Shown piece by piece: positions 20,702 to 56,490 of a stretch of 64,000 bases of DNA. Below the pieces are notes generated by a model. It saw only the letters and a program-made list of their open reading frames with translations. It did not search any database and was not told where the DNA came from. Where the stretch lies: NCBI GenBank assembly GCA_021737275.1, contig JAIPEE010000018.1:8970-72969 (forward strand), in the 5' to 3' direction. Made by a program: the position numbers and the translations under genes. This stretch comes from Desulfobacterales bacterium (lineage in GTDB: Bacteria; Desulfobacterota; Desulfobacteria; Desulfobacterales; JAIPEE01). Every line of letters starts with the position of its first letter. Within the stretch, counting starts at the first letter, position 1.

Positions 20702-20710
20702 GATATCCCC

Positions 20711-37986: not shown

Positions 37987-38190
37987 GTGAAAAAATGTGA
38001 TCAAAACATACAAACGGCATTAACGCTTGTTGATGAGATGCTTCGACTGGCAGACAAAGGTGAAGCGGATCGCGAAGACACCGGATGCGGCATCCTTTAT
38101 GGGGTCCTCAGAGATTCTGCCTATAAACTTAAGAAAATGGCTGAGCAGGAAAAAGACGCCCATATAAATAAAGGCTGGTGGAAAAAATAA
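37987..38190 (+). CDS. Hypothetical small helical protein (67 aa, GTG start)
   Basis: AGGAG (37973-37977) lies 9 nt upstream of the GTG. It is the first ORF of the + strand cluster. No family recognised. Confidence 0.4.
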   Translation: MKKCDQNIQTALTLVDEMLRLADKGEADREDTGCGILYGVLRDSAYKLKKMAEQEKDAHINKGWWKK

Positions 38191-38235
38191 AATCTTAACA
38201 AACATTAATTATTAACTTTAAAAGGAGAGAAAAGA

Positions 38236-38811
38236 ATGTCATCATTAAAAGGAACCCAGACTGAAAAAAATATTCTGACCGCTTTTGCAGGAGAATCTCA
38301 AGCCCGAAACCGATACACCTACTTTGCAAGTAAAGCCAAAAGCGAAGGTCTGGTTCAGATCTCCGCCATTTTCGAAGAAACCGCAAACCAGGAAAAAGAA
38401 CACGCCAAACGTCTGTTCAAGCTCCTTGAAGGTGGCGAAGTTGAAATTACCGGTGCGTTTCCTGCCGGGAAAATCGGTTCAACTCTTGAAAATCTGATGG
38501 AATCTGCTGCCGGTGAAAATTATGAGCATACTGAAATGTATCCCGGATTTGCAAAAGTGGCTCGTAAAGAGGGGCTCAACGACATTGCAACCATTTTTGA
38601 AGCTATTGCTGTTGCCGAAAAACAGCATGAGAACCGCTACAAGGCACTTGCTGCAAATATTGAAGCCGGCACAGTCTTCAAAAGAGGCGATACCGTTATC
38701 TGGCGCTGTAGAAACTGCGGCTATTTGCATGAAGGTACTGAAGCCCCGGATGTTTGCCCGGCATGCGCTCATGCACAGGCTCATTTTGAACTGTTAGGCG
38801 AAAACTATTAA
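38236..38811 (+). CDS. rbr: Rubrerythrin
   Basis: Diiron four-helix motifs (E..ARNRY, EKEHAKR, E..HTEMY, EKQHENR) are followed by a C-terminal rubredoxin-like CRNCG...CPAC. Confidence 0.9.
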
Positions 38812-38870
38812 TTGTTTTGAATAATACTTTTATCTAAACCCTCAAACCCAAAAAGATGGAGGCAAATAAA

Positions 38871-39245
38871 ATGGCTGAAAGACTTCAGGTTTATAAATGT
38901 GAATTGTGCGGAAATATTGTCAGTGTTTTTCATGGTGGAGCCGGTGAGCTCGTATGTTGCGGACAGGCAATGAAGCTGCTGGTGGAAAACACCGTTGATG
39001 CGGCAAAAGAAAAACATGTACCGGTTATTGAAAAAGTTGACGGCGGTTTTAAGGTAACTGTCGGCACCGTTCCCCACCCCATGGAAGAAAAACATTTTAT
39101 AGAGTTCATTGAACTCTGTGCGGACGGAAAGTATTATGTACAATTCCTGAATCCGGGAGATGCGCCCGAAGCAGTTTTTAAAATTGATGCCGACCAGGTA
39201 ACAGTACGTGAATTCTGCAACCTGCATGGCCTCTGGAAAGTGTAA
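38871..39245 (+). CDS. dfx: Desulfoferrodoxin (2Fe superoxide reductase)
   Basis: The N-terminal desulforedoxin site is [10 protein letters not shown]...CCG, and the neelaredoxin domain has [14 protein letters not shown] lies 7 nt before ATG 38871, so I prefer it to 38856. Confidence 0.9.
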
Positions 39246-39250
39246 TTATT

Positions 39251-39763
39251 ATGAAAGAAACTATTGAAAAGGCCTTAAATGCCCAGTTAAATGCAGAGAT
39301 GTATTCGTCATACCTGTATCTTTCCATGGAAGCATATTTTAAATCCATCAATCTGGATGGTTTTGCAAATTGGATGAACTGCCAGATGCAGGAAGAGTCG
39401 GCACATGCCAGAAAATTTTATGACTTTATCAACCAGCGAGGCGGTCGGGTTACGCTGACAACCATTGACGGGCCTGAAACAGAATGGGATTCACCGGTTG
39501 CGGTTATGGAAGCAACACTGGCCCATGAGCAAAAAGTTACCGCTCTTATCAATGACCTTCTGGATCTGGCCCTTGATGAGCGTGATCATGCGACCAATAT
39601 TTTTCTGCAATGGTTTGTAACTGAACAGGTCGAAGAAGAAGACAGTGTCAACAGTGTGCTTCAACAGCTTAAACAGACAGGTGCATCAGAAGGCGGGCTG
39701 TTTCTTGTTGATAGAGAACTGGCTCAAAGAACATTCACGCCTCCGTCAGTCACTGCAGCGTAA
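39251..39763 (+). CDS. Ferritin (non-haem, Ftn-type)
   Basis: The ferroxidase-centre pattern LNAEMYSSYLYLSM...QEESAHARKF...LAHEQKVT occurs in 170 aa. Confidence 0.85.
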   Translation: MKETIEKALNAQLNAEMYSSYLYLSMEAYFKSINLDGFANWMNCQMQEESAHARKFYDFINQRGGRVTLTTIDGPETEWDSPVAVMEATLAHEQKVTALINDLLDLALDERDHATNIFLQWFVTEQVEEEDSVNSVLQQLKQTGASEGGLFLVDRELAQRTFTPPSVTAA

Positions 39764-39796
39764 TTGAAATGTTGTTGATGTTTTGTTAAACTAAAG

Positions 39797-39849
39797 GCTG
39801 CCCTGCAATATTGCCATTAAAATAATTACCGGCAATCATGCAGGGTAGC
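39797..39849 (+). other. Large intercistronic RNA stem-loop
   Basis: gctgccctgca (39797-39807) pairs with tgcagggtagc (39839-39849), giving 11 bp with one G-U. An inner attgcc/ggcaat helix is also possible. No U-tract follows. Confidence 0.5.
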
Positions 39850-39871
39850 CCCTTAGATTGAGGAGGTGAAC

Positions 39872-40045
39872 ATGATGGATCAGCACTGTCCGGGGTTTGA
39901 AGCAAACAAGACGCTTAATGAGGTTATTTGCAAATGCCCCGACTGCGGCACACAAATTGAACTCTTTTCCGATGAACTGGAAAAAGAAATCGTTTGTAAA
40001 AAATGTGGTAAAAAGCTGGACAAATCACATTGTACACCGGCCTGA
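39872..40045 (+). CDS. Small CxxC...CxxC zinc-ribbon protein (57 aa), not in ORF track
   Basis: AGGAGGTGAAC precedes the ATG. My translation is MMDQHCPGFEANKTLNEVICKCPDCGTQIELFSDELEKEIVCKKCGKKLDKSHCTPA. It lies directly upstream of cydA. Confidence 0.6.
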   Translation: MMDQHCPGFEANKTLNEVICKCPDCGTQIELFSDELEKEIVCKKCGKKLDKSHCTPA

Positions 40046-40103
40046 TTTGGAATATAATGCAGTTTTATTAAATTTTAACCCCCCTTTAAGGAAGGAATAA
40101 CAC

Positions 40104-41420
40104 ATGGACGCCTTATTGCTCTCACGTCTGCAGTTTGCCGCCGCAACCATGTTTCATTTTCTCTTTGTTCCGCTCACACTCGGCCTTTCATTTCTGCTGG
40201 CCTACATGGAGACCCAGTATGTTCGTACGGGTGATGAAACATATCTTAGAATGACAAAATTCTGGGGAAAATTTTTTATTATCAATTTTGCCCTGGGCAT
40301 TGTGACGGGCATTACGCTTGAGTTTCAGTTTGGCACAAACTGGTCCCGCTATTCAAGTTATGTGGGCGACATTTTCGGATCCCTGCTTGCCATTGAAGCC
40401 ACAGCCAGTTTTTTTCTTGAATCCACCCTGATCGGTGTCTGGATCTTCGGATGGAACAAATTATCCAAAAAAGCGCATGCTGCTGTCATGTGGCTGATTG
40501 CAGGAGCAGGGACGCTGTCCGGAGTCTGGATCCTGATTGCCAATGCATGGATGCAGCACCCTGTGGGTTACGTGATTCGGAATGGCCGTGCAGAGCTGGA
40601 TGATTTTATGGCTGTCATCACCCAGAAGTTTGCCATATTGGAGTTTTTCCATACAATTGCTGCAGCCTATATCCTGAGCGCTTTCTTTGTTATGGGTATC
40701 AGTGCTTACCATCTTCTTAAAAAGAATAATATTGATTTTTTTACTCGCTCCTTCAGAATTGCACTTGTTTTCGGTCTTGTTTTTTCATTTTTTGAAATTG
40801 CCGAGGGTCATCTGCATGGTGCAGACCTTGCTGAAGCGCAACCTGCCAAAGTCGCCGCAATGGATGCCCATTGGGAGACTGAAACTCGTGCGCCGATTTT
40901 CATGTTTGCCATACCTGATGAGAAAAATGAAAGAAACCTCGTTGAAATCTTTCCGATACCCGGCATGCTAAGCTTTATGGCTTACCATGATTTTAATGCT
41001 GAGGTTAAGGGACTTAAAGATTTCCCCTTAGACGAACGGCCGCCGGTTCTTATTCCTTTTGTCTCTTTTAAGATAATGGTCATGCTGGGTTTTTACTTTG
41101 GATTTGCAACGATTCTTGGATGGATTTACAGGAACCGCCTCCTTGAAAAACCGTGGTATCTGAAAATGATGCTGCTTTCAATCCCCCTGCCCTACATCGC
41201 AATAGAGATGGGCTGGGTGCTGGCAGAGGTCGGCAGGCAACCATGGATTGTTTATGGTCTCATGAAAACATCAGATGCGGTATCACCCATTGCAGGATCC
41301 CAGGTCATGATATCCCTGATTGCTTTTTTTGTCGTATATGGTCTTCTGGGGCTTATCGGATTCTGGCTGATGTTTAACCATGCCAGAAAAGGCCCGGCTG
41401 AAGTCATTGCACCGTCATAA
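40104..41420 (+). CDS. cydA: Cytochrome bd quinol oxidase subunit I
   Basis: The ORF is 438 aa. MDALLLSRLQFAAATMFHFLFVPLTLG, GW..AE.GRQPW and the overall colinearity are canonical CydA features. Confidence 0.9.
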   Translation: MDALLLSRLQFAAATMFHFLFVPLTLGLSFLLAYMETQYVRTGDETYLRMTKFWGKFFIINFALGIVTGITLEFQFGTNWSRYSSYVGDIFGSLLAIEATASFFLESTLIGVWIFGWNKLSKKAHAAVMWLIAGAGTLSGVWILIANAWMQHPVGYVIRNGRAELDDFMAVITQKFAILEFFHTIAAAYILSAFFVMGISAYHLLKKNNIDFFTRSFRIALVFGLVFSFFEIAEGHLHGADLAEAQPAKVAAMDAHWETETRAPIFMFAIPDEKNERNLVEIFPIPGMLSFMAYHDFNAEVKGLKDFPLDERPPVLIPFVSFKIMVMLGFYFGFATILGWIYRNRLLEKPWYLKMMLLSIPLPYIAIEMGWVLAEVGRQPWIVYGLMKTSDAVSPIAGSQVMISLIAFFVVYGLLGLIGFWLMFNHARKGPAEVIAPS

Positions 41421-41473
41421 TAAACAATCGGCAAATGCCTTAAATTCAAGGCATTTGTAATAAGGAGCATTTT

Positions 41474-42502
41474 ATGGAACTTCAAACTATATGGTTTTTT
41501 GTGTGGGGCCTGTTGTGGGCTGTGTTCTTCATGCTGGACGGATTCAACTTCGGTATCGGATCACTGATGCCGTTTCTGGCAAAAAAGGAGATGGATAAAA
41601 AAATTATGGTTCGGGCCATGGGGCCGTTCTGGGATGGAAACGAAGTCTGGCTTCTGACGGCAGGTGGCGTAACATTTGCAGCTTTTCCGGATGTTTATGC
41701 GGTTATGTTTTCATCACTTTATGCCGCACTCATGCTGGTTCTGTTCTCCCTTATTGTCAGGGGTGTCGGCATTGAGTTCAGAGGCAAACTGGATACACCG
41801 GCCTGGAAAAGACTCTGGGATACCTGTATTTTCATCGGCAGTGCCGCACCTGCAATACTCTTTGGTGTTGCCTTTGCCAATATTTTCCGGGGCATTCCAT
41901 TTGACGGCGAAGGCATCTATCACGGTACGCTGCTGACCCTGCTCAATCCATATGGATTACTTGGCGGTGTGCTTTTTCTCTGTCTTTTTCTACTGCATGG
42001 GGCCAATATGCTGGCGTGTAAAACTAAAGGCGTCTTACACCACTCTGCTGTCCGAACGGCAAACAGGTTGTGGCCGGTTACATTGGTTGTAACGGTAGTT
42101 TTTCTGATAGCCTCCTGGTTTGCCACCGACCTTTATGACAACTACCTGGCATCACCGGTACTGTTTCTGTTTATACTGCTGACAGCACTTTTTCTTGTGG
42201 GTGTAAAAATATTTTTAGTAAAAAATTCATTTATAAAGGCATGGACCGCATCAGCGCTTACGATCGTTGGTGCAACATTCTTTGGCATAATCGGTCTTTT
42301 CCCCAACATGTTTCCTTCCAGCATTAATGCTGATTTCAGCCTAACGGCATTTAACGCTTCGTCCAGCCCGATGACACTGAAAATCATGCTGGGCGTTGTA
42401 ATCATATTTGTTCCTGCTATAATAGCATATCAGTCATGGGCTTACCGGTTATTTAAAGATAAAATTACTGAAGAGTCGCTTGCACATGAAGAAGGATACT
42501 AA
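41474..42502 (+). CDS. cydB: Cytochrome bd quinol oxidase subunit II
   Basis: The ORF is 342 aa. LQTIWFFVWGLLWAVFFMLDGFNFGIG and GPFWDGNEVWLLTAGG are CydB hallmarks. Confidence 0.9.
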   Translation: MELQTIWFFVWGLLWAVFFMLDGFNFGIGSLMPFLAKKEMDKKIMVRAMGPFWDGNEVWLLTAGGVTFAAFPDVYAVMFSSLYAALMLVLFSLIVRGVGIEFRGKLDTPAWKRLWDTCIFIGSAAPAILFGVAFANIFRGIPFDGEGIYHGTLLTLLNPYGLLGGVLFLCLFLLHGANMLACKTKGVLHHSAVRTANRLWPVTLVVTVVFLIASWFATDLYDNYLASPVLFLFILLTALFLVGVKIFLVKNSFIKAWTASALTIVGATFFGIIGLFPNMFPSSINADFSLTAFNASSSPMTLKIMLGVVIIFVPAIIAYQSWAYRLFKDKITEESLAHEEGY

Positions 42503-42514
42503 GAAAGGATACGT

Positions 42515-42859
42515 ATGAAAATTTTTACAGTAGTTATTTGCTCTGTAATGTTGATAGCCGCTTTTGCCTTAGCTGAAAATGTACAGAATAATGGTGAAAG
42601 CATGATGACTATAAATGGCGGAAGCAGGGGCGAAGTTCCTTTTCCCCATGAAAAACACCAGCAGGTTCTGGGAGATTGCAACCATTGTCATAACATCTTT
42701 CCTCAGGAGGCCGGCGCCATTGAGAAACTGAATGCAGATGGAACCCTGTCTTCCAAACAGGTGATGAATCAGTGTAAAGGTTGTCACAAAACGTTGAAGG
42801 ATGCCGGCAAGACGACCGGACCGACAAAGTGCGGAGATTGCCATATCAGAAAGGACTAA
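42515..42859 (+). CDS. Periplasmic trihaem cytochrome c7 (PpcA-like, c3 family)
   Basis: A signal peptide is followed by VPFPHEKHQQVLGDCNHCH ... CKGCHKTLKDAGKTTGPTKCGDCH. This is colinear with Geobacter PpcA (FPHKAHQ..CKKCH..CKGCH..PTKCGECH). Confidence 0.8.
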   Translation: MKIFTVVICSVMLIAAFALAENVQNNGESMMTINGGSRGEVPFPHEKHQQVLGDCNHCHNIFPQEAGAIEKLNADGTLSSKQVMNQCKGCHKTLKDAGKTTGPTKCGDCHIRKD

Positions 42860-42865
42860 CTGTTT

Positions 42866-43834
42866 ATGTTTATTCTTGGTCTTCAGGGCAGCCCGAGAAA
42901 AAAGGGAAATACGGATATCTTGCTTTCAACGTTCATGGGAGAAGCTGAAAAACTGGGCGCAAGAACCCAAACCATTGATGTTACCAGAAAGAATATTGAA
43001 CCGTGCAAAGAGCTGGTCGTCTGTGAGAAAAAAGGGTATTGCCCCATTGAAGATGAAATGGAAAGTGAGGTCTATCCACTGATCAGACAGGCAGATATTA
43101 TTGTTATCGCCTCACCGGTTTTTTTCTACAGTGTATCTGCCCAGCTAAAAGCAGCAATTGATCGATGCCAGATGTTCTGGGCCAGAAAATACTGTCTCAA
43201 ACTGTCCGATCCCCTCAGAAATACACGACGGGGATTTATGCTGGCCGTTGGTGCAACAAAGGGAAAGCTTCTTTTTAGCGGCATTGAATTGCTGACCAAA
43301 ATTTTTTACGATGCGGTCGGTGCCAAATATGAAGGAAGCCTTACCTATCGAGGTGTGGAAAAACGCGGTGAGATAGCGGATCACCCTACGATGAAAGAAG
43401 ATGTTAAAAATGCGGTTGCTAAACTGTTGCAGCCGCTTATGAAACGGAAGAAAGTTCTTTTTGCCTGCCGGGAAAATGCCTGTAGGAGCCAGATAGCCGC
43501 AGCTTTTGCCCAGCAGCTGGCCGGCGATAGAATTGAAGCCCTGTGCGGCGGCAGCACACCCATTGAGAAAATCAATCCAATGATGTCTGAAGTTATGGCC
43601 GAATCAGGTATTGACATGGAATACAGGGTTCCGCAATCTATTGAAGATGCACTGGTTGACGGCAACCCGGAAATAATTGTAACAATGGGCTGCGGTGAGG
43701 CGTGCCCGATTTTGCCGGGTACTCAAAGAATTGACTGGGATCTTGAAGACCCGGCCGCACAATCAATTGAGTTCATGCGGAAAACAAGAGATGAAATTGA
43801 ACAAAAAGTAATAGATCTGATAAAGGATCTTTAA
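42866..43834 (+). CDS. Fusion protein: flavodoxin-like FMN reductase domain + ArsC/LMW-PTP domain
   Basis: The N-terminus ILGLQGSPRKKGNT...IVIASPVFFYSVSAQLK is NADPH-FMN-reductase/Isf-like. The C-terminus has VLFACRENACRSQ (the CX5R P-loop) and TMGCGEACP (the thioredoxin-type ArsC Cys pair). Confidence 0.75.
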   Translation: MFILGLQGSPRKKGNTDILLSTFMGEAEKLGARTQTIDVTRKNIEPCKELVVCEKKGYCPIEDEMESEVYPLIRQADIIVIASPVFFYSVSAQLKAAIDRCQMFWARKYCLKLSDPLRNTRRGFMLAVGATKGKLLFSGIELLTKIFYDAVGAKYEGSLTYRGVEKRGEIADHPTMKEDVKNAVAKLLQPLMKRKKVLFACRENACRSQIAAAFAQQLAGDRIEALCGGSTPIEKINPMMSEVMAESGIDMEYRVPQSIEDALVDGNPEIIVTMGCGEACPILPGTQRIDWDLEDPAAQSIEFMRKTRDEIEQKVIDLIKDL

Positions 43835-43852
43835 GAAAAGAGGTTATTTAAT

Positions 43853-44032
43853 ATGTCATCAACCGGTATGTGGCAATGCCAGGGAGCATCTTGTGGATTC
43901 ATCTATGATCCGGCAAGAGGAGATAAAAGAGGTAAAATTCCTAAAGGCATAAATTTTGAGGACCTTCCGGATGACTGGAAATGTCCGGTTTGCGGTGTAT
44001 CCAAAAGAATGTTTAAATCACTGGATGTTTAA
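43853..44032 (+). CDS. Rubredoxin-like protein with C-x4-C first site (59 aa), not in ORF track
   Basis: My translation is [59 protein letters not shown]. It has the rubredoxin core ([18 protein letters not shown]), but the first site is CQGASC rather than CxxC. Confidence 0.75.
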
Positions 44033-44098
44033 TAAACATATGAATTAAATGATATTTGATTCATTTCTTTTAACTCAACTTAAAATAAGGAGAAAACA

Positions 44099-44260
44099 AT
44101 GGAAAAGTATGTATGTGAAGTTTGCGGCTATGTTTATGACCCGGCAAAAGGCGATCCTGACAATGGTGTAGCTCCGGGAACAGCATTTTCAGATGTTCCC
44201 GATGATTGGGAGTGCCCTGTTTGCGGTGCCGGAAAAGATGATTTTGTTGTTGAAGAATAA
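44099..44260 (+). CDS. rub: Rubredoxin (53 aa), not in ORF track
   Basis: AAGGAG precedes the ATG. The translation [53 protein letters not shown] is a canonical CxxCG...CPxCG rubredoxin. Confidence 0.9.
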
Positions 44261-44283
44261 AAAAATAATCGCAGGGGAAAAGA

Positions 44284-45468
44284 ATGAAGCCTTTTGAAAT
44301 TGCAGATGGAATCTACAGTGTCGGTGTTGCTGACTGGAATGTAAGGAACTTTCACGGCTATTCAACTGAAAAAGGAACGACCTATAATGCGTTTCTGCTC
44401 ATTGATGAAAAGGTTACTCTCATTGATACAGTCAGGCGGGAGTTCAAGGATCAGTTTTTAAAAAACATCTCAAAAATCATTGATCCAAAAAAAATTGACT
44501 GTGTCATTAGCAACCATACTGAAATGGATCACTCCGGATCTTTGCCTTTTTTGATGCATATAATCGGTGCTGAAAAACCGGTGTACTGTTCCAAAATGGG
44601 TTTTAAGAGTCTTCCGCTTCATTTCAGGCCGGAACTGAATTATCAGGCGCTTGAAAATGGCAGTAAATTAAGCATCGGCAAGCGAACACTCCAATTTCTT
44701 GAAACAAGAATGCTGCACTGGCCGGACAGTATGTTTACCTATCTCAAAGAGGATAAAATTCTTTTTTCCAGCGATGCCTTTGGCCAGCATTATGCCGGTC
44801 CCAAAAGGTTTGATGATGAAATTGATGATCTGATTTTACATCAGGCCAAAAAGTATTATGCCAACATTCTGATGCTTTATGGCAGGAAAACGGGTAAACT
44901 TCTAAAAACCGTTGAAGAGATGGGTCTTGATATTAAGATGATCTGTCCGGATCATGGTATTCTCTGGCGGAAAAATCCCGAAAGGATTATTCGCAAATAT
45001 GAAAAATGGAGTAGCCAGGAATCCAAACGTAAAGCGGTTATTGTTTATGATACCATGTGGCATAGTACGGAGCAGATGGCAGAAAAAATTGCAGAGGGCA
45101 TCTCTGATGAAGGTGTGGAGGCCATGCCACTTCGCCTTGGGAGATGCCACCGGAGCGACATTATGACGGAGGTTCTTGATGCAAAAGCCGTTATTGTCGG
45201 CTCTCCGACATTAAACAACCAGCTCTACCCATCCGTCAGTGAGTTTTTAACTTATATGAAGGGCCTTAAGCCTAGGGGAAAAGTGGGTGCTTCATTTGGA
45301 TCATTTGGATGGAGCGGCGAAGCTGTCCGGCTTATCCGTCAAGAACTTGAGGAGATGGAGTTTGAAATCCCGGATCCGGGTCTCAAAATCAAATATGTTC
45401 CCGACGCAGCAGGTAATGACGCCTGTTATGAGTTCGGTCGAAAAGTTGGAAAAGCGATAGGAAAATAA
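44284..45468 (+). CDS. roo: Flavodiiron protein (FprA family; rubredoxin:oxygen oxidoreductase-like)
   Basis: An MBL-like diiron domain (SNHTEMDHSGS) is followed by a C-terminal flavodoxin domain. The gene sits immediately downstream of rubredoxin, as in Desulfovibrio rub-roo. Confidence 0.9.
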   Translation: MKPFEIADGIYSVGVADWNVRNFHGYSTEKGTTYNAFLLIDEKVTLIDTVRREFKDQFLKNISKIIDPKKIDCVISNHTEMDHSGSLPFLMHIIGAEKPVYCSKMGFKSLPLHFRPELNYQALENGSKLSIGKRTLQFLETRMLHWPDSMFTYLKEDKILFSSDAFGQHYAGPKRFDDEIDDLILHQAKKYYANILMLYGRKTGKLLKTVEEMGLDIKMICPDHGILWRKNPERIIRKYEKWSSQESKRKAVIVYDTMWHSTEQMAEKIAEGISDEGVEAMPLRLGRCHRSDIMTEVLDAKAVIVGSPTLNNQLYPSVSEFLTYMKGLKPRGKVGASFGSFGWSGEAVRLIRQELEEMEFEIPDPGLKIKYVPDAAGNDACYEFGRKVGKAIGK

Positions 45469-45475
45469 GACAATA

Positions 45476-45667
45476 ATGAAATTTCCTGTTGTAGAACTTG
45501 ATCAGTGTATTCTCTGCGGTGTCTGTGAAGATGTATGTCCTGAAGTGTTTCATTTAAATGATAGTGGATATATAGAAGTAAAAGACCTTTCCGAATATCC
45601 GGAAAACGAAGTTGATGATGCTATAAAAAACTGCCCTGCTGATTGCATTGACTGGCAGGGCAGTTGA
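45476..45667 (+). CDS. Small [4Fe-4S]/[3Fe-4S] ferredoxin
   Basis: CILCGVCEDVCP ... CPADC occur in 63 aa. Confidence 0.8.
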   Translation: MKFPVVELDQCILCGVCEDVCPEVFHLNDSGYIEVKDLSEYPENEVDDAIKNCPADCIDWQGS

Positions 45668-45678
45668 ACTGTTATTAT

Positions 45679-46359: not shown

Positions 46360-46391
46360 AATAATTTTTTTAAAAAACCGGAATTCTGAAC

Positions 46392-47474: not shown

Positions 47475-47482
47475 TTTTTTTT

Positions 47483-47518: not shown

Positions 47519-47589
47519 TTAAAAAACTGTGATTACGGGTACGGTCAAGATTCTGATCAAAAACGACTAATATAACTTTGGACGATACT

Positions 47590-50226: not shown

Positions 50227-50240
50227 GGTAAAAATTAAAA

Positions 50241-51722
50241 ATGAAAATCAAGCGTAACTGGATTTTTCACCTGACCCTTATGACTGCTTCCGCACTATTG
50301 ATACAAGGGTGCGTCTATCCAAAAAACCATACCTACGAAAGTATTCAAAAAGAATATGCGGATATTATCTGTAACATAACACCTACGGATGATATGGTTG
50401 CCGCGCAGGACGGCTGTATAATGGATAAAAAAATATCGCTTCGTGAAGCTGTATCCATAGCCATTTCAAATAACCCTGACAGTAAAATAGCGGTTTCCCG
50501 CATCATGCAGGCCTATGCATCACTTGAAAAAACCAATGCGCCGTTCCTCCCTGCTATCGGTTTTTATACGGAATATATGCAGGGTGATTCGCCATCCGCC
50601 TATCTTTTTAAAACAGTAGACCGGAGAGAACTGCCGGCAGCAGCTGATTTTAATTATCCCGGCTGGTTTGAAAACTATGAAACAGGCGTCAATGTTCGCA
50701 TGAATCTGTATAAAGGTGGAAAGGACATCATGAATCACCGAATGGCCGAACGCGAACTTGAAGCAATGCAGTATGACCGCCGGCGTGTTGAAAATGAACT
50801 GATCACAGCGGTTATTCATTCCTATTACAATTGCCTCTCAGCAAAAAAGTTTGTCGATATCGCCATTGAATCTGTTGAAACGGTTGAGTCCCAGCTCAAG
50901 GTTATGACGGTTCGTTATAATGCCGGTGGTGCGCTCAGGTCGGATATACTCACACTGGATGTACGACTTGCAGAGGCTATGGAGGAATCGGTAAGGAGTA
51001 AAAATAATTTGGAAATTTCCATGGCGGTTCTGGCCAATGTTTTAGGCGCCGACCCGGACAGCAGGATTTTGCTTTCGGAAGAAAACACCTGTCTTCTAAC
51101 CGTACCGGAAGATTATGATGCCGGCATTACGCATGCGCTTCTGTACCGGCCTGAACTGAACAAACTCAGGGCACACCTCAGGCAATCAAGAATTGCGCTG
51201 GATGCAGCCAAAACCGATTACTATCCCACGGTTGATTTTGAGACAAGATACTATTTTGATGATGAAAACATGAACTATGATCGTGATAAGGATAACTGGA
51301 CGGCCGGCATTCTTCTGAACTGGGATATTTTCACAGGTTTCAGCACGGTTTCTGATACAAAAAAGGCGGAAGCCGTTGTCGAAGAATTGCTGGCCGCAGA
51401 TCGGAAAACCGGGCTGGATATCAAGCTGGATGTAAAAACAGCATATCTGAAGCTTGACGGCGCTACAGCTCGGCTTAATGTCGCCAAGCGTAGTGTCGCC
51501 ATGGCAGAAGAGTCGCTGAAGCTTGTTAAACAGCAATATGAGGGCGGATCTGCAACGATAACCCGCTATCTCGAAGCTGAGCTGGACAATAACCGGTCAA
51601 AAATCAGAGCAACGGCAGCCTTTTATGACAGGGAAAAAGCCCTGGCCGACGTCGGCAGGGCAATCGGATTCTGGTCAAAACCATTCACATCAGAACAGGA
51701 CAGCCAAAATGAAGTTGAATAA
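50241..51722 (+). CDS. Efflux transporter outer-membrane lipoprotein (TolC/NodT family)
   Basis: The lipobox is LIQGC. There are two OEP repeats with typical coiled regions, in 493 aa. Confidence 0.8.
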   Translation: MKIKRNWIFHLTLMTASALLIQGCVYPKNHTYESIQKEYADIICNITPTDDMVAAQDGCIMDKKISLREAVSIAISNNPDSKIAVSRIMQAYASLEKTNAPFLPAIGFYTEYMQGDSPSAYLFKTVDRRELPAAADFNYPGWFENYETGVNVRMNLYKGGKDIMNHRMAERELEAMQYDRRRVENELITAVIHSYYNCLSAKKFVDIAIESVETVESQLKVMTVRYNAGGALRSDILTLDVRLAEAMEESVRSKNNLEISMAVLANVLGADPDSRILLSEENTCLLTVPEDYDAGITHALLYRPELNKLRAHLRQSRIALDAAKTDYYPTVDFETRYYFDDENMNYDRDKDNWTAGILLNWDIFTGFSTVSDTKKAEAVVEELLAADRKTGLDIKLDVKTAYLKLDGATARLNVAKRSVAMAEESLKLVKQQYEGGSATITRYLEAELDNNRSKIRATAAFYDREKALADVGRAIGFWSKPFTSEQDSQNEVE

Positions 51723-52848
51723 AAGATTAATTCTTATAAGTGCCGCAATCGGAATTGGCGTTATTCTTATTGTCATGTTTGTTGTCTCATCCTTCAAGAT
51801 CTCTCCCGGGCTTGAAAAAGTGTCGGGAATTAAGAGAGATATTCCTTCAAATACGGCCCGTGCCGAAATAAAAACTATAACGGAATGGTATGAAGCCGTC
51901 GGTACGGTTCGCCCCCATACGGAAATCAGAATTGAAGCACAGGTAACGGCACAGGTGACGGATGTAAAAGTCAATCATGGCGACAAGGTGGAAAAAAATC
52001 AACTCCTTGTCGTCCTTGACAGTCGGCAGTTTCTTTCCAGACTGGATCAGGCCAGGGAGGGATTGAAAATAGCTAATGCTGCAAAGAAAAAGGCTTCACA
52101 GGCAAAGATTTCAGCACAGGCTGCTATGTCAGAGGCAGCGTCAGCATATAAAAGAACAAAAACCTATTTTGAATCACAGGCGGCAACCGCCCAGGATCTT
52201 GAACAGTCAGAATCCGCATTTCTTCAGGCACAAGCCGGTTTGAATCAGGCCGAAGAGTCACTAACGGCAACTGCAGCCGGAATTCGCCACGCAGAAGAAG
52301 TCATCAAGGAAGCGGAATTTGCTTTAGAATATACAAAAATCAAAGCACCTGAAACCGGTGAAGTTTTAAAACGTCTGGTCGAACCGGGGGACCTGGCCCT
52401 GCCGGGCAAGCCGCTGGTTATATTGCAGGCCAGTGGTGCATTGCGCCTTGAAGCAAATGTTCGGGAAGGCATGATCTCCCAAATTGGCCCCGGCACAAAA
52501 CTCCAGGCTTCCATTGATCCGCAAGATGACAATATTGATGTCACGGTCGAAGAGATAGTGCCTTATGCCGATCCGGAAACCCGCACATTTATCGTAAAGG
52601 TCTCTCTGCCCATGGATATCGGCCTCTACCCCGGCATGTATGGTAAGCTTCTGATTCCGGTAGAAGAGGTACGGATAGTAGCCATTCCGCAAAGTGCGGT
52701 TAAGCAGATTGGCCAACTGGAACTTGTTTCCGTTAAGGTGGATGAAATTTGGACAATCCGATATATCAAAACCGGAAAAAAAATTGACGGTCTGGTAGAA
52801 GTACTTTCCGGTTTGAGCGGTAATGAAATCATAGGGCTGGAGGGATGA
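51709..52848 (+). CDS. Efflux RND periplasmic adaptor (MFP/HlyD family)
   Basis: I chose ATG 51709 (MKLNKRLILISAAIG..., a TM anchor), which overlaps the upstream stop codon. Coiled-coil hairpin, lipoyl and beta-barrel motifs are present. Confidence 0.8.
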   Translation: MKLNKRLILISAAIGIGVILIVMFVVSSFKISPGLEKVSGIKRDIPSNTARAEIKTITEWYEAVGTVRPHTEIRIEAQVTAQVTDVKVNHGDKVEKNQLLVVLDSRQFLSRLDQAREGLKIANAAKKKASQAKISAQAAMSEAASAYKRTKTYFESQAATAQDLEQSESAFLQAQAGLNQAEESLTATAAGIRHAEEVIKEAEFALEYTKIKAPETGEVLKRLVEPGDLALPGKPLVILQASGALRLEANVREGMISQIGPGTKLQASIDPQDDNIDVTVEEIVPYADPETRTFIVKVSLPMDIGLYPGMYGKLLIPVEEVRIVAIPQSAVKQIGQLELVSVKVDEIWTIRYIKTGKKIDGLVEVLSGLSGNEIIGLEG

Positions 52849-52852
52849 GGAC

Positions 52853-55800
52853 ATGACCCTTCTTAAGTCCATTGTTGCCGGTTTCCTGAATTCAAGACTC
52901 TCCATCATCCTGATTATCGCTTCACTTTGTCTGGGCATAGCTGCCGTAATGATAACACCAAGGGAAGAGGAGCCCCAGATTGTAGTTCCACTGGCAGATG
53001 TTTATATCTATGCACCCGGTGCCGGCGCCGGCGAAATTGAAAAACTGGTTGCCACACCCCTTGAAAGACTGCTGTGGCAAATAGATGGTGTGGAATATGT
53101 ATACTCCATGTCACGGCAGGATATGGCAATTGTCACTGTCCGGTTTTTCGTTGGTGAGGACAGAGAAAATTCTCTGGTAAAACTTCACAACAAAATTTCC
53201 ATGAATATTGACAGTGCACCGCCCATTGTTTCCGGCTGGGTGATAAAACCTGTTGAAATTGATGACGTCCCGATAACTAATATTACGCTTTATGCAGAGC
53301 AATACAATGACCATGAACTCCGTAGAATTGGCGAAGAGGTTCTTTCAAGGCTTTCAAGTATTGAAGATATATCCAGAGTAAATATCATCGGCGGTCGAAA
53401 ACGCGAAATACTGGTCGAACTCATTCCGGAAAAGCTTTCCGGATACGGCATCTCAATTAATGAAGTTCAGCAGGTTCTCCGGGGCGCAGATGTTTCAGTT
53501 TATGCCGGGAGCTTTTCCCGATTTAACAAGGAACATGAAGTCATCAGCCACTCTTTTTTATCTTCTGCCGGTGATGTATCAGCGCTTATGGTTGGCGTTA
53601 AAGGGGATCGGCCCGTATACCTTCGGGATATTGCATCTGTAACGGATGGGCCCGAAGAGATGAAAAGCTATTCTCATATCGGCCACTCCTATTACTTTCG
53701 TAAAACCCATAACATTGAAAATGAACCGTTGTCTTATCCGGCAGTAACCCTTGCGCTGGCCAAGAAAAAAGGTACCAATGCCGTTACGGTTTCGCGTAAT
53801 ATTATTAAGGAATTGGAGATACTTAAGAAAACAATTATTCCTGACAGTGTAAAAGTTGAAATCACCCGAAATTATGGTGAAACAGCCCAGCAGAAGGTAA
53901 ACGGCCTTTTAGGATCACTTGCATTTGCCATTGTTTCGGTTGTTATCCTGCTGGCGTTGACGCTCGGCTGGCGTGAAGCGGTAGTGGTTGCACTGGCTGT
54001 TCCCATCAGCTTCTCGCTTGCCCTTTTTGTCAATTACCTTTTCGGCTATACCATTAACCGGGTAACCCTGTTTGCCCTGATTCTCTCTCTGGGCCTGGTT
54101 GTCGATGATCCGATTACCAATGTTGACAATATCCAGCGTCATATTCTGACCGGTGCAAGGAACTCTGTTGAGGCAACACTTTTTGCCGTTGGCGAAGTAC
54201 TTCCGCCGGTAATCATGTCCACCCTGGCTATTATTATCTGTTTTATTCCCCTCTTCTTTATAACCGGCATGATGGGACCCTATATGGCGCCCATGGCGTC
54301 AATGGTTCCTGTAACGGTTGTTTTCTCCACTTTCTGTGCATTAACCATTGTCCCGTGGCTGACACATCTGCTTTTAAAAAATAAAAGTAAAACGGGAGTT
54401 ACCGGCTCAAAACAAAATAAGCCGGAAAATTCAGCCATCCACAAAATTTACAGAAAGATTGTTGATCCTTTTCTGGAATCAAGTCAAAAGAGAAAAGCCC
54501 TCTTTTTAACGGTTATCGGGCTCTTAATTGTACCTATTCTTCTGGCTGTTGTAAGACTTGTACCTTTAAAAATGCTGCCGTTTGATAACAAGAACGAGTT
54601 TCAGGTTATTATTGATATGCCCGAAGGTACAACCCTTGAACATACCGGCATGGTCGTTCAGGATTTTGAAAACTACCTCAGGCAAATCAGGGAAGTAACT
54701 AATTTTGTCTCCTATGTCGGCACTGCATCACCCATCGATTTCAATGGCCTTGTCAGACATTACTATCTGAGAAACAGCGGACACCTTGCCGATATCCGGG
54801 TCAACCTGGTAGATAAAAGTCAGCGCAAGCAGCAGAGTCATGGAATTGTACTTCGTATCCGTAAGGATCTTGAGCAGCTCGCATTAAAGCACAATGCATC
54901 CATCAAGCTTGTTGAAGTACCGCCGGGGCCACCTGTGTTATCGACCATTGTAACGGAAATATATGGTGAACCGGATCGCTCCTATGAGCAGTTGATTGAA
55001 GGCGCGGATCATATCAAAAAAATCATGGCGGATGAGCCTTTTCTGGTTGATATTGATGACTCCTCTGAAGAACCCCGGTCCAGAATCAACTTTATACTGG
55101 ATAAGGAAAAAGCAGCACTTCATGGTGTAACCGCCCAGACAATTATTACCTCTTTACAAATTGCGCTGGGCGGCTCAACGGTAGCAACCGTTCATGCACC
55201 CGGAGAACGCCAACCGCTTATGGTTAAAACAATTCTTCCGGTCGATAAGCGATCCGGCGTTACAGCCCTAAAACAGATACCGGTCAAAACAATGTCCGGA
55301 AGCCTGGTGCCGCTAGCCGAGCTTGTGCGGATTGACTATTCTTCTGAAGATCAGCCCATCTATCACAAAAACCTTAAACGTGTTGTTTTTGTTTATGGCG
55401 AAATGGCCGGGCGGGCACCTGGTGAAGCCGTTCTTGATATGCAGAAACGGTTAAAAAATGATCCTTTGCCGAAAGGATTGGTGGCGGAATGGGCCGGTGA
55501 AGGAGAATGGAAAATTACACTGAGTGTATTCCGGGATATGGGCATTGCATTTGCAGCCGCACTTTTAGGTATATATATTCTCCTGATTCTGACAACCAAT
55601 TCTTTTTTCATGCCCGTGCTGATCATGATGGCTATTCCCCTGACGTTGATCGGTGCTATGCCGGGATTCTGGCTGCTTAACCTTATTACCGGCAATACGG
55701 TTGGCGGATTTTCAAACCCGGTATTTTTTACGGCTACCGGTATGATCGGAATGATTGCCCTTGGCGGCATTGTTATACGAAACTCGCTGGTACTGATTGA

Positions 55801-56050
55801 ATTTATTCAGCAAGAAATAAAGGCAGGCACCCCCTTTAAGGAAGCCATCCTGCAAAGCGGCGCTATTCGGATGCGGCCCATTGTGCTGACAGCAGCGACA
55901 ACAGCACTGGGGGCATGGCCGATTACGCTTGACCCTGTTTTTTCAGGATTGGCCTGGACACTAATATTCGGATTACTGGCATCTACTGCTTTTACATTAT
56001 TGATTGTGCCGGTAACATATTATGCGCTTTTTAAAGACAAGATCAGTTAA
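52853..56050 (+). CDS. RND family efflux permease (AcrB/CzcA superfamily)
   Basis: The ORF is 1065 aa with a 12-TM architecture and two large periplasmic loops. The conserved TM4 context is GLVVDDPIT. Confidence 0.9.
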   Translation: MTLLKSIVAGFLNSRLSIILIIASLCLGIAAVMITPREEEPQIVVPLADVYIYAPGAGAGEIEKLVATPLERLLWQIDGVEYVYSMSRQDMAIVTVRFFVGEDRENSLVKLHNKISMNIDSAPPIVSGWVIKPVEIDDVPITNITLYAEQYNDHELRRIGEEVLSRLSSIEDISRVNIIGGRKREILVELIPEKLSGYGISINEVQQVLRGADVSVYAGSFSRFNKEHEVISHSFLSSAGDVSALMVGVKGDRPVYLRDIASVTDGPEEMKSYSHIGHSYYFRKTHNIENEPLSYPAVTLALAKKKGTNAVTVSRNIIKELEILKKTIIPDSVKVEITRNYGETAQQKVNGLLGSLAFAIVSVVILLALTLGWREAVVVALAVPISFSLALFVNYLFGYTINRVTLFALILSLGLVVDDPITNVDNIQRHILTGARNSVEATLFAVGEVLPPVIMSTLAIIICFIPLFFITGMMGPYMAPMASMVPVTVVFSTFCALTIVPWLTHLLLKNKSKTGVTGSKQNKPENSAIHKIYRKIVDPFLESSQKRKALFLTVIGLLIVPILLAVVRLVPLKMLPFDNKNEFQVIIDMPEGTTLEHTGMVVQDFENYLRQIREVTNFVSYVGTASPIDFNGLVRHYYLRNSGHLADIRVNLVDKSQRKQQSHGIVLRIRKDLEQLALKHNASIKLVEVPPGPPVLSTIVTEIYGEPDRSYEQLIEGADHIKKIMADEPFLVDIDDSSEEPRSRINFILDKEKAALHGVTAQTIITSLQIALGGSTVATVHAPGERQPLMVKTILPVDKRSGVTALKQIPVKTMSGSLVPLAELVRIDYSSEDQPIYHKNLKRVVFVYGEMAGRAPGEAVLDMQKRLKNDPLPKGLVAEWAGEGEWKITLSVFRDMGIAFAAALLGIYILLILTTNSFFMPVLIMMAIPLTLIGAMPGFWLLNLITGNTVGGFSNPVFFTATGMIGMIALGGIVIRNSLVLIEFIQQEIKAGTPFKEAILQSGAIRMRPIVLTAATTALGAWPITLDPVFSGLAWTLIFGLLASTAFTLLIVPVTYYALFKDKIS

Positions 56051-56079
56051 TTTATAATGAGATAATAATGGAGCATGAA

Positions 56080-56490
56080 ATGTCATTTTTTGATTGGGAA
56101 GAAAAATACAGTGTTGGCATAACTGAGATTGACGAGCAGCATAAAAAACTGGTGGGCCTGTTAAATCAGCTTCATGAAGCAATGAGTGACGGTAAGAGTA
56201 CAGAAGTAATTAAGCCTGTGCTTATCGGCCTGATTGAATATGTTAAAACACATTTTTCTACTGAAGAAAATTACTTAATTAAGTATGCCTACCCTGATTA
56301 TGAATCCCATAAAAAAGCACATGATCAGTTCACCAATAAGGTTCGGGATTTGAGGGATAAATATATTGATGATACAACTTCATCTCTGGCCATAGAGATA
56401 TCCGATTTTTTGAAAGACTGGCTGGTAAAACATATTATGGGTACAGATAAACTTTACGTCTCTTTTCTCAAGGAAAAAGGCGTGAAATAA
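56080..56490 (+). CDS. Bacteriohemerythrin
   Basis: MSFFDWEEKYSVGITEIDEQHKKL, HFSTEE, HKKAH and DWLVKHIMGTD are the His/Glu/Asp diiron ligand pattern. GGAG lies 6 nt before ATG 56080. Confidence 0.85.
   Translation: MSFFDWEEKYSVGITEIDEQHKKLVGLLNQLHEAMSDGKSTEVIKPVLIGLIEYVKTHFSTEENYLIKYAYPDYESHKKAHDQFTNKVRDLRDKYIDDTTSSLAIEISDFLKDWLVKHIMGTDKLYVSFLKEKGVK

Follow-up and report, generated by a model that had tools for sequence, protein, structure and literature searches.

A 20-gene oxygen-defence cluster of a Desulfobacterales bacterium extends a conserved core preceded by a putative sigma-54-type promoter

We analyzed a gene cluster located in a 64,000-nucleotide stretch of DNA from a Desulfobacterales bacterium (contig JAIPEE010000018.1 of assembly GCA_021737275.1, positions 8,970 to 72,969 of the forward strand), referred to here as the window. 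The cluster (positions 37987-56490 of the window) encodes enzymes that reduce oxygen and reactive oxygen species (ROS), together with a ferritin, electron carriers, efflux proteins and several proteins of uncharacterised function. Its genes could be identified and their order is conserved in related loci, a -24/-12 motif lies upstream of the first gene, and a regulator with a cysteine triad of the OrpR type is encoded nearby. The best explanation, to which we give a probability of roughly 0.6, is that the region is a redox-controlled, sigma-54-dependent O2/ROS defence operon representing the most extended form of a conserved core.

Results

The cluster consists of 20 co-directional genes

Both the listing of open reading frames (ORFs) and an independent gene call, made on an identical public contig (L084, Logan SRR12088349; compared loci carry L numbers), gave 20 consecutive + strand genes spanning 18.5 kb. 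The encoded proteins, g1 to g20, were identified by Pfam and NCBIfam profile scans, the latter with the curated cutoffs applied:

37987-38190 (+): g1, 67-aa helical-hairpin protein of a conserved family, first gene of the cluster
38236-38811 (+): g2, rubrerythrin (Rbr), a peroxidase; NF045767, 298 bits (cutoff 200), and Pfam
38871-39245 (+): g3, desulfoferrodoxin (Dfx), a 2Fe superoxide reductase; TIGR00320, 207 bits (cutoff 147)
39251-39763 (+): g4, non-haem ferritin (Ftn), an optional member; Pfam Ferritin 4.6e-46
39872-40045 (+): g5, 57-aa Cys-rich Zn-ribbon protein (57-59 aa); Pfam Zn_ribbon_LysW 1.2e-7
40104-42502 (+): g6-g7, cytochrome bd quinol oxidase, CydA (438 aa) and CydB (342 aa); Pfam 1.3e-175 and 1.4e-100
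42515-42859 (+): g8, periplasmic trihaem c7-like cytochrome; Pfam Cytochrome_C7/CIII, 3 CxxCH
42866-43834 (+): g9, fusion of an NAD(P)H-FMN-reductase-like and an ArsC/low-molecular-weight-phosphatase-like domain; Pfam FMN_red and LMWPc
43853-44260 (+): g10, Rd-2/Rdl-type rubredoxin, and g11, canonical rubredoxin (Rd); Pfam Rubredoxin 4.5e-20 and 5.3e-26
44284-45468 (+): g12, class A flavodiiron protein (FDP; ROO/FprA); Pfam ODP and Flavodoxin_1
45476-45667 (+): g13, 63-aa single-cluster ferredoxin (Fd); Pfam Fer4_13 7e-13
45664-46359 (+): g14, HEAT-repeat protein of the DVU0298 family; NF045662, 230.5 bits (cutoff 75)
46392-47474 (+): g15, OR-C1b-type CydA paralogue, a 360-aa membrane protein; hhalign against the g16 family
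47590-50226 (+): g16, OR-C1a-type cytochrome bd-like subunit, 878 aa with 8 CxxCH; Pfam Cyt_bd_oxida_I 1.9e-10
50241-56050 (+): g17-g19, outer-membrane factor, membrane-fusion protein (MFP) and RND permease; Pfam OEP, HlyD and ACR_tran
56080-56490 (+): g20, bacteriohemerythrin, last gene of the run; NF033749, 153.8 bits (cutoff 84)

The initial annotation of this DNA had described an O2/ROS-defence supercluster on a single strand, with very short gaps or overlaps between genes. Each of its functional assignments was recovered by Pfam or NCBIfam, and the interpretation as a defence locus is supported both by these identities and by the gene order kept in relatives. The layout was also borne out, as all 20 genes point in the same direction with gaps of -14 to 115 nt (45, 59, 5, 108, 58, 53 and 12 nt from g1 to g8; 6, 18, 66, 23, 7, -4 and 32 nt from g8 to g15; 115, 14, -14, 4 and 29 nt from g15 to g20), and 96.6% of the region is coding. 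The 14-nt distance between the first block of genes and the RND trio with the hemerythrin was exact (50226 to 50241); the block itself had been counted as 17 genes and actually holds 16, followed by 4, and the annotation's own list also sums to 16. Better start codons were found for dfx (38871, matching the L084 gene call), the Zn-ribbon gene (39872), the MFP gene (51709) and the hemerythrin gene (56080). The base composition of the region is unremarkable relative to its flanks, and an Rfam scan of 34-58 kb detected no family at the gathering score.

Some of these identities could be refined. The g12 protein has the metallo-beta-lactamase-like diiron domain and the flavodoxin domain of class A FDPs, falls into their size class of approximately 400 aa, and matches Moorella thermoacetica FprA (1YCF, E 2e-120) and Desulfovibrio gigas ROO (1E5D, 8e-109) over the full length. 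The g8 cytochrome has an N-terminal signal segment and three CxxCH motifs, and scored 59.8 bits against the Geobacter PpcA-type c7 model NF043011, below the cutoff of 120; we thus class it as c7-like and not as a c7 equivalog. In g10 (43853-44032) the first knuckle is C-x4-C instead of C-x2-C, as in the Rd-2/Rdl type of the Desulfovibrio perR-rbr-rdl operon. The g17-g19 proteins gave generic RND and CzcB-like matches only on NCBIfam.

A core of the cluster is conserved in order

To analyze the conservation of the cluster, we assembled a set of loci anchored on g9, a fusion protein with more than 2700 homologues. The set consists of 80 metagenome loci, Desulfonema magnum, D. limicola and one JGI contig (83 loci), and for each neighbour only loci with enough flanking sequence were counted as informative:

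c7 (g8), adjoining g9: 72/73
Zn-ribbon (g5), always 5' of c7 or cydAB: 56/60
dfx: 41/43
g1: 37/39
rbr: 31/39
ferritin: 22/43
Rd-2-type rubredoxin (g10): 36/71
rubredoxin (g11): 61/64
fdp: 44/45
fd: 39/42
HEAT (g14): 27/30
cydA: 1/39
cydB: 4/52
g15: 1/22
g16: 0/18
RND: 1/18
hemerythrin: 0/18

These counts define a core of 12 genes with the order g1-rbr-dfx-(ftn)-Zn-ribbon-c7-g9-(Rd2)-Rd-FDP-Fd-HEAT, whose members were found in 79-99% of the informative loci, except for the optional ftn and Rd2 (approximately 51% each). In the 24 loci that were fully covered, g1 to g14 share one strand and span a median of 7.5 kb, and approximately 60 more loci retain a partial order, confirming that the recurrence of the order g1 to g14 is more than chance. 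The conserved part is thus a core of approximately 7.5 kb that does not include cydAB, in agreement with the initial statement that membrane bd oxidase is normally encoded elsewhere. Because the core order is kept across loci, the window represents the most extended version of a conserved core and not an isolated oddity. The initial annotation had named a lack of conserved gene order in relatives as a result that would speak against it, and the order proved to be strongly kept. It had also expected that functions could be assigned to the uncharacterised members by guilt by association; this holds for some unknowns of the core (g1, the Zn-ribbon protein and the HEAT-repeat protein) and is weak for the bd-like pair and the RND trio.

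Most relatives have a flavodoxin gene (fld) between dfx/ftn and the Zn-ribbon gene (Znr), which the window does not have. The cultured Desulfonema strains could not serve as references for the whole supercluster: D. limicola holds only dfx-fld-Znr-cydAB-c7-g9 and D. magnum only c7-g9-rd-fdp-fd-HEAT-g15, neither with the -24/-12 motif described below, and the g16 homologues of D. magnum and D. ishimotonii stand alone in unrelated contexts. No description of this cluster was found in the searchable literature.

A -24/-12 motif precedes the core in all comparable loci

An alignment was then made of the 400-nt sequences that precede g1 in 39 loci. In all 39, the element CTGGCACAGAATTTGAA (pattern TGGCAY-N5-TTGW) occurs 80-112 nt before the g1 start codon, retaining the -24 half (TGGCAY) and the spacing of the sigma-54 consensus TGGCAC-N5-TTGC. 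On the + strand of the 83 g9-anchored loci (767 kb) the pattern matched 42 times, 39 of them before g1. Two of the remaining 3 matches lie before a DVU0772-family gene that heads rbr-dfx-rd-fdp-fd (L087/L157) and 1 lies elsewhere. In the window, a single match was found on either strand, also with the pattern TGGCAY-N5-TTGH, and it lies 78 nt upstream of g1. Both the position and the conservation of the motif argue for its function as a sigma-54-type promoter. A scan of the window alone with the canonical TGGCAC-N5-TTGCW, allowing 2 mismatches, was discarded (29 matches versus 37 expected), as the motif becomes meaningful only after comparison between loci. The rpoN gene is not in the window. 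The features of the upstream region are the following:

37895-37909 (+): putative -24/-12 promoter element TGGCATCGTTTTTGT, expected transcription start near 37920
37663-37733 (+): candidate upstream activator region with a direct repeat and an integration host factor (IHF)-consensus site; repeat search
37157-37191 (no strand): perfect hairpin with an 11-bp stem and a 13-nt loop, 100% complementary, between the convergent u185 and u120 genes
37200-37562 (-): u120, 120-aa DVU0772-family protein, divergent from g1; NF045682, 126.6 bits (cutoff 45)

The direct repeat ATACACTTT(T/A)..TTTTA.TA is present twice (37663-37680 and 37690-37707) and is followed by the IHF-consensus site TATCAATAACTTA (37721-37733). 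The 64-kb window contains WATCAANNNNTTR at only 3 places, this one included. Repeat, IHF site and -24/-12 element are arranged in the classic layout of upstream activator sequence, IHF site and promoter, from which we infer their function. The hairpin at 37157-37191 probably terminates transcription in both directions and thereby insulates the cluster from the transcription unit of the activator described below.

Homologues of u120 with 64-68% identity immediately precede rbr, in the same orientation, in L087 (approximately 14142-14504) and L157 (17400-17747), each with its own TGGCAY-N5-TTGH motif 78-84 nt upstream, which suggests that the DVU0772-family gene belongs to the same putative sigma-54 regulon. 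For u120 of the window, only a poor and badly placed match to the motif was found on the minus strand. The D. vulgaris member, DVU0772, is presumably gene 206199. The latter, a hypothetical gene with a PerR box, is a predicted member of the PerR regulon (Rodionov et al., PMC545781).

A candidate redox-sensing activator is encoded upstream of the cluster

Two + strand genes lie on the other side of the putative terminator:

35144-36496 (+): sigma-54 enhancer-binding protein (EBP) with PAS-AAA+-HTH architecture and a GAFSGA loop; Pfam Sigma54_activat 1.8e-70, PAS and HTH_8
36529-37086 (+): u185, 185-aa membrane protein with approximately 5 transmembrane (TM) segments; no Pfam or NCBIfam match

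The activator gene is located 1.4 kb upstream of the cluster and is probably co-transcribed with u185, of which no homologue was present in any compared locus. The PAS domain of the activator carries DCHIAMGGPFCGDSCSFCG, containing Cys59, Cys68 and Cys72 (as well as His60 and Cys75). These three Cys residues are invariant in 12/12 homologues, with the spacing C-x8-C-x3-C, and the single-PAS homologues detected in a search of 1.84 billion representative proteins are all sigma-54 activators. L001, a locus from a Desulfobacterales metagenome-assembled genome (MAG), encodes a 50%-identical activator with the same Cys triad 7 kb from its cluster.

The same PAS-AAA+-HTH architecture is found in OrpR (DVU2106) of D. 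vulgaris, in which C52, C61 and C65, identically spaced, are needed for a [4Fe-4S] cluster that is sensitive to redox conditions and gates sigma-54 activation; OrpR senses redox potential and not O2 itself (PMC8359166). EBP genes usually adjoin their own promoters, as stated in the passage of that paper that cites Kazakov 2015. The window protein is thus a candidate redox-sensing regulator of the cluster, linked to it by proximity and by this general rule on EBP neighbours. A search for oxidative-stress terms in the D. vulgaris sigma-54 regulome paper (PMC4641369) revealed no mention of such an operon.

Two homologues of the activator, P0464 (4.7e-20) and P0483 (1e-11), have an N-terminal LMWPc/ArsC-like domain before the Cys-triad PAS domain, and P0414, P0456, P0491 and P0499 probably have it too, with a GAF domain in its place in some other homologues. 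This domain is of the same type as the C-terminal half of g9. Further upstream in the window, a block resembling a type III restriction-modification system (27434-33233, minus strand; ResIII helicase, KilA-N protein and N6/N4 DNA methylase) lies a few kb 5' of the activator; DUF6933 and DUF2400 genes come next, and another multihaem cytochrome c of 465 aa (17183-18580; Multi-haem_cyto, Cytochrome_C554) is encoded approximately 20 kb upstream of the cluster.

The membrane oxidases, RND trio and hemerythrin are additions to the core

Genes cydAB between g5 and g8 were found only in the window, L001, L086 (D. limicola) and L166, with remnants in L087 and L157. The insertion point, always between the Zn-ribbon and c7 genes, is the same in at least four lineages. 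In L087 (5345-5536) and L157 (approximately 8400-8500) cydA is reduced to a 63-aa fragment, with cydB, c7 and g9 intact. These fragments, together with the constant position of cydAB, suggest ancestral presence followed by loss, and the loss of the bd oxidase from the cluster in L087 and L157 looks ongoing.

The second pair of bd-like genes, g15 and g16, belongs to a different branch of the superfamily. Only the N-terminal part of CydA is detected in g16 (residues 21-246, Pfam), and the family profile matched CydA of G. thermodenitrificans (5DOQ_A) with an E of 4e-7 over residues 19-190. In the alignment of this family, which has more than 2,180 members (best non-self match 58% identical), His24 is invariant and corresponds to the haem ligand equivalent to His19; E105 and E112, also invariant and with 6 residues in between, align to the CydA glutamates equivalent to E99 and E107 with one residue deleted. 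The protein has 8 hydrophobic segments before residue 305, no Q-loop, and a predicted periplasmic tail that bears 8 CxxCH motifs at residues 366-857, the first of them c6-like. The g15 protein aligned with the g16 family over 275 columns (hhalign probability 93.8%, E 1.7e-7) and has approximately 8 TM segments and an invariant His31, with no aligned proton-channel glutamates. On these structural features, g15 and g16 are assigned to OR-C1b and OR-C1a of the cytochrome bd superfamily. OR-C1a has been proposed, and only proposed, to be an oxygen reductase with cytochrome c as electron donor (Murali, Gennis, Hemp 2021; 10.1101/2021.01.16.426971).

To analyze the neighbourhood of this pair we used a second set of 80 loci, obtained by scanning one genome per GTDB species and anchored on g16. 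In 73/80 loci g15 lies directly upstream of g16 on the same strand, and this arrangement spans Desulfobacterota, Bacteroidota, Ignavibacteria, Calditrichia and others. No recurrent neighbour beyond g15 was found in these loci (the best candidate family reached 7/80), and some O2-related gene is present within 10 kb in only approximately 10/80. Because the pair is self-contained and has no recurrent neighbour, guilt by association is weak for the bd-like pair. L001 repeats the arrangement of the window, with g1-g3 and g6-g16 in the same order at 43-85% amino-acid identity and only the ferritin and Zn-ribbon genes missing from g1 to g16. L006 and L007 carry fd-HEAT-g15-g16-OEP-MFP-RND at a contig edge, and in L090 an orthologous RND trio (54-73% identity) directly follows the HEAT gene; for the hemerythrin, no other locus examined showed a link to the cluster. 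The bd-like pair and the RND trio are lineage-specific add-ons, and OR-C1b/OR-C1a is a self-contained two-gene unit.

Variants of these arrangements were seen in several loci. In D. magnum (CP061800), an OR-C1b-like gene (L085, 15304-16395) still adjoins the HEAT gene of the cluster fragment, which has an IS110 transposase gene nearby, and the OR-C1a gene (L081, 10001-12640) lies approximately 5 Mb away with no OR-C1b beside it; the pair is split. L064 has two OR-C1-like pairs (10001-12646 and 19926-22206), the second in reversed order, with a canonical cydAB in between. In L112, the HEAT gene is followed by a gene for a NIR_SIR/4Fe-4S protein (14251-15198) and, approximately 2 kb on, by one for a CopA-type heavy-metal P-type ATPase (16474-18921), which echoes the efflux genes attached in the window.

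With two membrane oxidase systems and a periplasmic cytochrome in one run, the locus could be read as an energy-conserving island for micro-aerobic respiration, in which the bd and OR-C1 terminal oxidases are fed via c7 and the detoxifying enzymes are accessory. This reading also draws on the equivalents of the proton-channel glutamates (E105, E112) and of His19 kept in g16, and on the position of c7, which always follows cydB where cydAB is present. However, most related clusters have neither oxidase and yet keep c7 and the rest, the run lacks a gene for a quinol- or cytochrome-reducing dehydrogenase, and the activity of OR-C1 is so far a proposal. We therefore consider this explanation very unlikely.

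The core is fused in the window and probably divided in most relatives

In the window, the core is fused without terminators to cydAB, the OR-C1 pair, the RND trio and the hemerythrin. No terminator-like site was found in the intergenic gaps of the run, and those on the + strand are all located inside genes; neither the terminator-like sites (31 versus 21.6 expected, sd 4.9) nor the sigma-70-like matches (51 versus 42.9 expected) were convincingly enriched. A single -24/-12 motif heads the run, and the genes overlap or nearly touch. One further RNA structure was detected:

39797-39851 (+): RNA hairpin in the gap from ftn to the Zn-ribbon gene; minimum free energy -40.6 kcal/mol, z -4.75, 0/200 shuffles as stable

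Its outer stem and flanks pair with the ribosome-binding region of g5, and possible roles for it are attenuation, RNA processing or translational control.

Several observations weigh against the interpretation of the locus as one redox-controlled sigma-54 operon. A single 18.5-kb mRNA is a prediction from the layout, and the strong hairpin just described separates ftn from g5 in a run with two AT-rich gaps (108 and 115 nt). In relatives, the conserved hairpin GATGCCCTTT..AAAGGGCATC lies directly after rd in 46 loci, and the rd-fdp gap measures 120-856 nt with a conserved ATGTTTATATT element before fdp; hairpin and gap indicate that the cluster is not always one transcription unit, and in those loci the core looks like at least two. 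Only a few loci join cydAB, OR-C1 or RND genes to the core, and no neighbour of the OR-C1 pair recurs. The promoter motif of the window is not significant when taken alone (1 match versus 1.6 expected), in contrast to the comparative pattern across loci, which is, and its -12 element is TTGA/TTGT and not TTGC, with the G kept and the C replaced. Regarding the activator, an EBP is encoded within 8 kb upstream in 0/21 other loci, and the conserved motifs found upstream of g1 in relatives (ATGTATCGCA, TTATTATGATATTC and the inverted repeat TGTCTTATGAGACA) were searched upstream of g1 in the window and are absent; the EBP of the window is therefore only a candidate for the cognate activator. OrpR, finally, is active when reduced and controls cell-division genes and not ROS genes (PMC8359166). 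It drives the orp cell-division operons via GGGCGYRTTTTGCGCCC sites, whereas the window activator adjoins a ROS cluster; no such box was seen by eye in 37050-38260, where no pattern search was run, and no orp genes were found near the activator in a Pfam scan of its flanks. The different site, the cell-division targets and the activity in the reduced state indicate that the window protein is an OrpR-like paralogue and not an orthologue.

The hairpin after rd is a 10-bp inverted repeat, GATGCCCTTT..(variable loop)..AAAGGGCATC, that occurs once per locus (e.g., 11673-11718 in L112 and 11871-11915 in L160). Its stem is kept across loci that share approximately 75% amino-acid identity, a degree of conservation seldom seen in a plain terminator. 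Both the hairpin and the ATGTTTATATT element are absent from the window, where the rd-fdp gap is 23 nt. We conclude that the core probably forms two units in most relatives, which are fused in the window.

The divided organization could be taken further, with the cluster as a chance or convenient juxtaposition of modules (rbr-dfx-ftn; cydAB; c7-g9-rd; fdp-fd-HEAT; OR-C1ba; RND; hemerythrin), each under its own promoter and regulation and sharing nothing functional beyond the strand. Modules do occur separately (D. limicola and D. magnum), in 73/80 loci OR-C1ba forms a pair of its own with variable neighbours, relatives have the terminator-like hairpin after rd, and the window has the strong hairpin after ftn and sigma-70-like matches before cydA, c7 and hemerythrin. 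Yet dozens of loci preserve the core order, cydAB enters at a constant point (g5/g8) in at least four lineages, and the rd-fdp distance in the window has shrunk to 23 nt with no hairpin and no terminator-like site in any gap. In addition, the sigma-70-like matches are not enriched and the only -24/-12 motif stands at the head of the run. On balance we regard independent modules as rather unlikely, although this is the strongest of the competing explanations.

A second question is which signal the cluster answers. Sigma-54/EBP control of an FDP is known for NorR, and bd oxidases and hemerythrins have also been tied to nitric oxide (NO) tolerance, so the cluster could respond mainly to NO or to general redox stress rather than to O2, as an expanded circuit of the NorR-norVW type. 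The closest solved relative of the FDP, M. thermoacetica FprA (1YCF), is annotated as a nitric oxide reductase, which also speaks against a defence limited to O2/ROS; the top NCBIfam matches of the FDP, below cutoff, are flavorubredoxin NO reductases, and the sensing of redox potential by OrpR fits such a response as well. However, D. gigas ROO is nearly as similar to the FDP as FprA is, the activator has a Cys-triad PAS domain and not the GAF/non-haem-iron domain of NorR, and Dfx, Rbr and ferritin, taken here as the most conserved neighbours, are specific for ROS or iron. An NO-directed circuit is therefore unlikely, and a redox-controlled O2/ROS defence operon is the reading that we retain.

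Four conserved proteins of the core have uncharacterised functions

The g1 family comprises 513 sequence clusters, all annotated as hypothetical. Its AlphaFold 2 (AF2) model is a two-helix hairpin (pLDDT 96.1), and Cys4, Cys34, His59, R29-E30-D31 and W64-W65 are invariant. The fold search returned generic helical hairpins only (best E 0.5), and a resemblance to half-ferritin or encapsulated-ferritin helices was insignificant and was discarded. We suspect a metal- or thiol-based role for g1. The g5 protein has seven conserved Cys residues in the motifs HCPG, CxCxxCG, CxxC and C. The g14 protein and u120 fall above the NCBIfam cutoffs of the DVU0298 and DVU0772 families, respectively, both functionally uncharacterised; a literature match for DVU0298 turned out to be a typo for a CO dehydrogenase gene.

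The g9 protein combines two domains with conserved Cys residues. The N-terminal domain, with invariant C47, C53 and C59, matches NQO/AzoR/SsuE in a Foldseek search with the AF2 model; a relationship to iron-sulfur flavoproteins was considered and dropped, as there was no sequence match to Isf, and an Fe-S site is speculation since the Cys-rich loop (residues 41-64) is modelled with low confidence. In the C-terminal domain, C201-x5-R207, C276 and C280 are invariant in the alignment, the model superimposes on pI258 ArsC with a TM score of 0.85 (Foldseek), and the PDB sequence matches are the ArsC structures 3t38 and 2l17. The second Cys pair is spaced x3, versus what is presumably x6 in pI258 ArsC. 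Scores against the NCBIfam ArsC equivalogs were 82 bits (cutoff 158) and, for TIGR02691, 69 bits (cutoff 174). No classical NADH:rubredoxin oxidoreductase (NROR) is encoded in the 20-gene run, which makes g9 and/or Fd the likeliest electron input to the rubredoxins or to a thiol relay.

The ArsC fold of g9 with its CX5R loop, the label arsenate reductase that JGI gives to some of its homologues, the CzcB-like matches of the MFP and the CopA-type P-type ATPase encoded 2 kb downstream of the cluster in L112 could point to an arsenic or metal resistance island formed by g9, the RND trio and neighbours, located among redox genes by accident. This is highly improbable: both ArsC equivalog scores of g9 are far below cutoff, its fixed neighbours are c7, Rd and FDP, Pfam scans of the run detected no arsR, acr3/arsB or arsA, and the RND permease fits multidrug-type models better than CusA/CzcA.

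Discussion

If the locus is a redox-controlled sigma-54 operon, an Fe-S cluster in the PAS domain of an EBP, possibly the product of 35144-36496, would read a redox or O2 signal. The EBP would then switch the sigma-54 RNA polymerase at 37895-37909, giving a transcript that runs from approximately 37920 through g1 and beyond. In the cytoplasm, the rubredoxins would act as electron donors for three enzymes, FDP reducing O2 to H2O, Dfx superoxide to H2O2 and Rbr H2O2 to H2O, a chain that is established biochemistry in Desulfovibrio and Moorella, while ferritin would sequester released iron and g9 and/or Fd would feed electrons in. At the membrane, the bd oxidase would remove O2 with quinol, and OR-C1ab may remove it too, using periplasmic c-type cytochromes, for example c7, as the electron source.

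The enzymology is already known from the rbo-rub-roo and perR-rbr-rdl operons of Desulfovibrio and from the five-gene cluster of Moorella. The Desulfovibrio operons encode the same enzymes, presumably connected in the same chain from rubredoxin to ROO/FDP, Dfx (Rbo) and Rbr, and perR-rbr-rdl shares with the window a rubredoxin of the Rdl/Rd-2 type (g10). The Desulfovibrio PerR regulon also has a predicted DVU0772-family member, and the window cluster has a DVU0772-family neighbour. In contrast to the 3 genes of these operons, the cluster described here has 12-20, the conserved extra ones encoding g1, the Zn-ribbon protein, c7, the FMN-reductase/ArsC fusion, Fd and the HEAT-repeat protein, and a -24/-12 motif stands at its head in place of PerR boxes or of a constitutive sigma-70 promoter. 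No match to the PerR/Fur family was found among the 20 cluster genes or the flanking ORFs scanned (33.3-60.1 kb).

Das, Coulter, Kurtz and Ljungdahl are said to have described the five-gene oxidative-stress cluster of Moorella thermoacetica in 2001 (J Bacteriol 183:1560). It likewise contains Rbo/Dfx, Rd, Rbr and a type A flavoprotein, and FprA (1YCF) of this organism is the closest match of the window FDP. The Moorella genes form two divergent operons with a high-molecular-weight rubredoxin (Hrb) as reductase, whereas the window cluster is co-directional, has neither Hrb nor NROR, and has membrane oxidases, a cytochrome, ferritin and efflux genes attached. The OR-C1 pair of the window is a member of the group defined by Murali, Gennis and Hemp with no structural difference; what is particular to it is its attachment to a Rd/FDP/Rbr/Dfx cluster.

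For the regulation there are two parallels. NorR of E. coli is a sigma-54 EBP that controls the FDP-rubredoxin genes norVW in response to NO. PexR-ahpC/katB of Myxococcus provides a precedent for sigma-54/EBP control of peroxide (H2O2) defence (PMC12754779). As in these systems, an EBP whose sensor domain is metal-based would, with sigma-54, drive detoxifying enzymes, with the pairing of activator and promoter inferred here; the differences are a Cys-triad PAS sensor instead of a GAF domain and a far larger multi-enzyme target cluster. Neither the sigma-54-type promoter nor the OrpR-like activator was part of the initial annotation. They are among the new elements of the system, together with the size and conservation of the unit, the four conserved unknowns and the attachment of OR-C1.

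A bolder interpretation, doubtful at present, is that the locus reveals an unrecognised circuit of marine Desulfobacterales in which an OrpR-like EBP and sigma-54 take the place of PerR, g1, g5, g9 and g14 are new parts of the rubredoxin-dependent chain of detoxification, and OR-C1 has been recruited. In such a circuit, g9 could be the missing input from NAD(P)H to rubredoxin or a thiol-reducing one, and OR-C1 would be a periplasm-facing O2 reductase fed by cytochrome c. The presence of an ArsC-like domain in both g9 and activator homologues hints at one thiol module used for signalling and catalysis.

Desulfobacterales, the dominant sulfate reducers of marine sediments, inhabit oxic-anoxic interfaces, and their tolerance to O2 has so far been extrapolated from the three-gene, PerR-controlled operons of Desulfovibrio. 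Approximately 80 syntenic relatives, including related marine genomes, now define a much larger conserved unit, in which four conserved but functionally uncharacterised proteins, g1, g5, g9 and g14, co-vary with Rbr, Dfx, Rd and FDP. The locus suggests that regulation follows a different logic, with sigma-54 and an Fe-S PAS activator as its basis, and provides the clearest genomic link of the OR-C1 branch to oxygen-handling genes. The recurrence of the core behind a conserved promoter points to a real and only partly understood oxygen-survival system in these bacteria.

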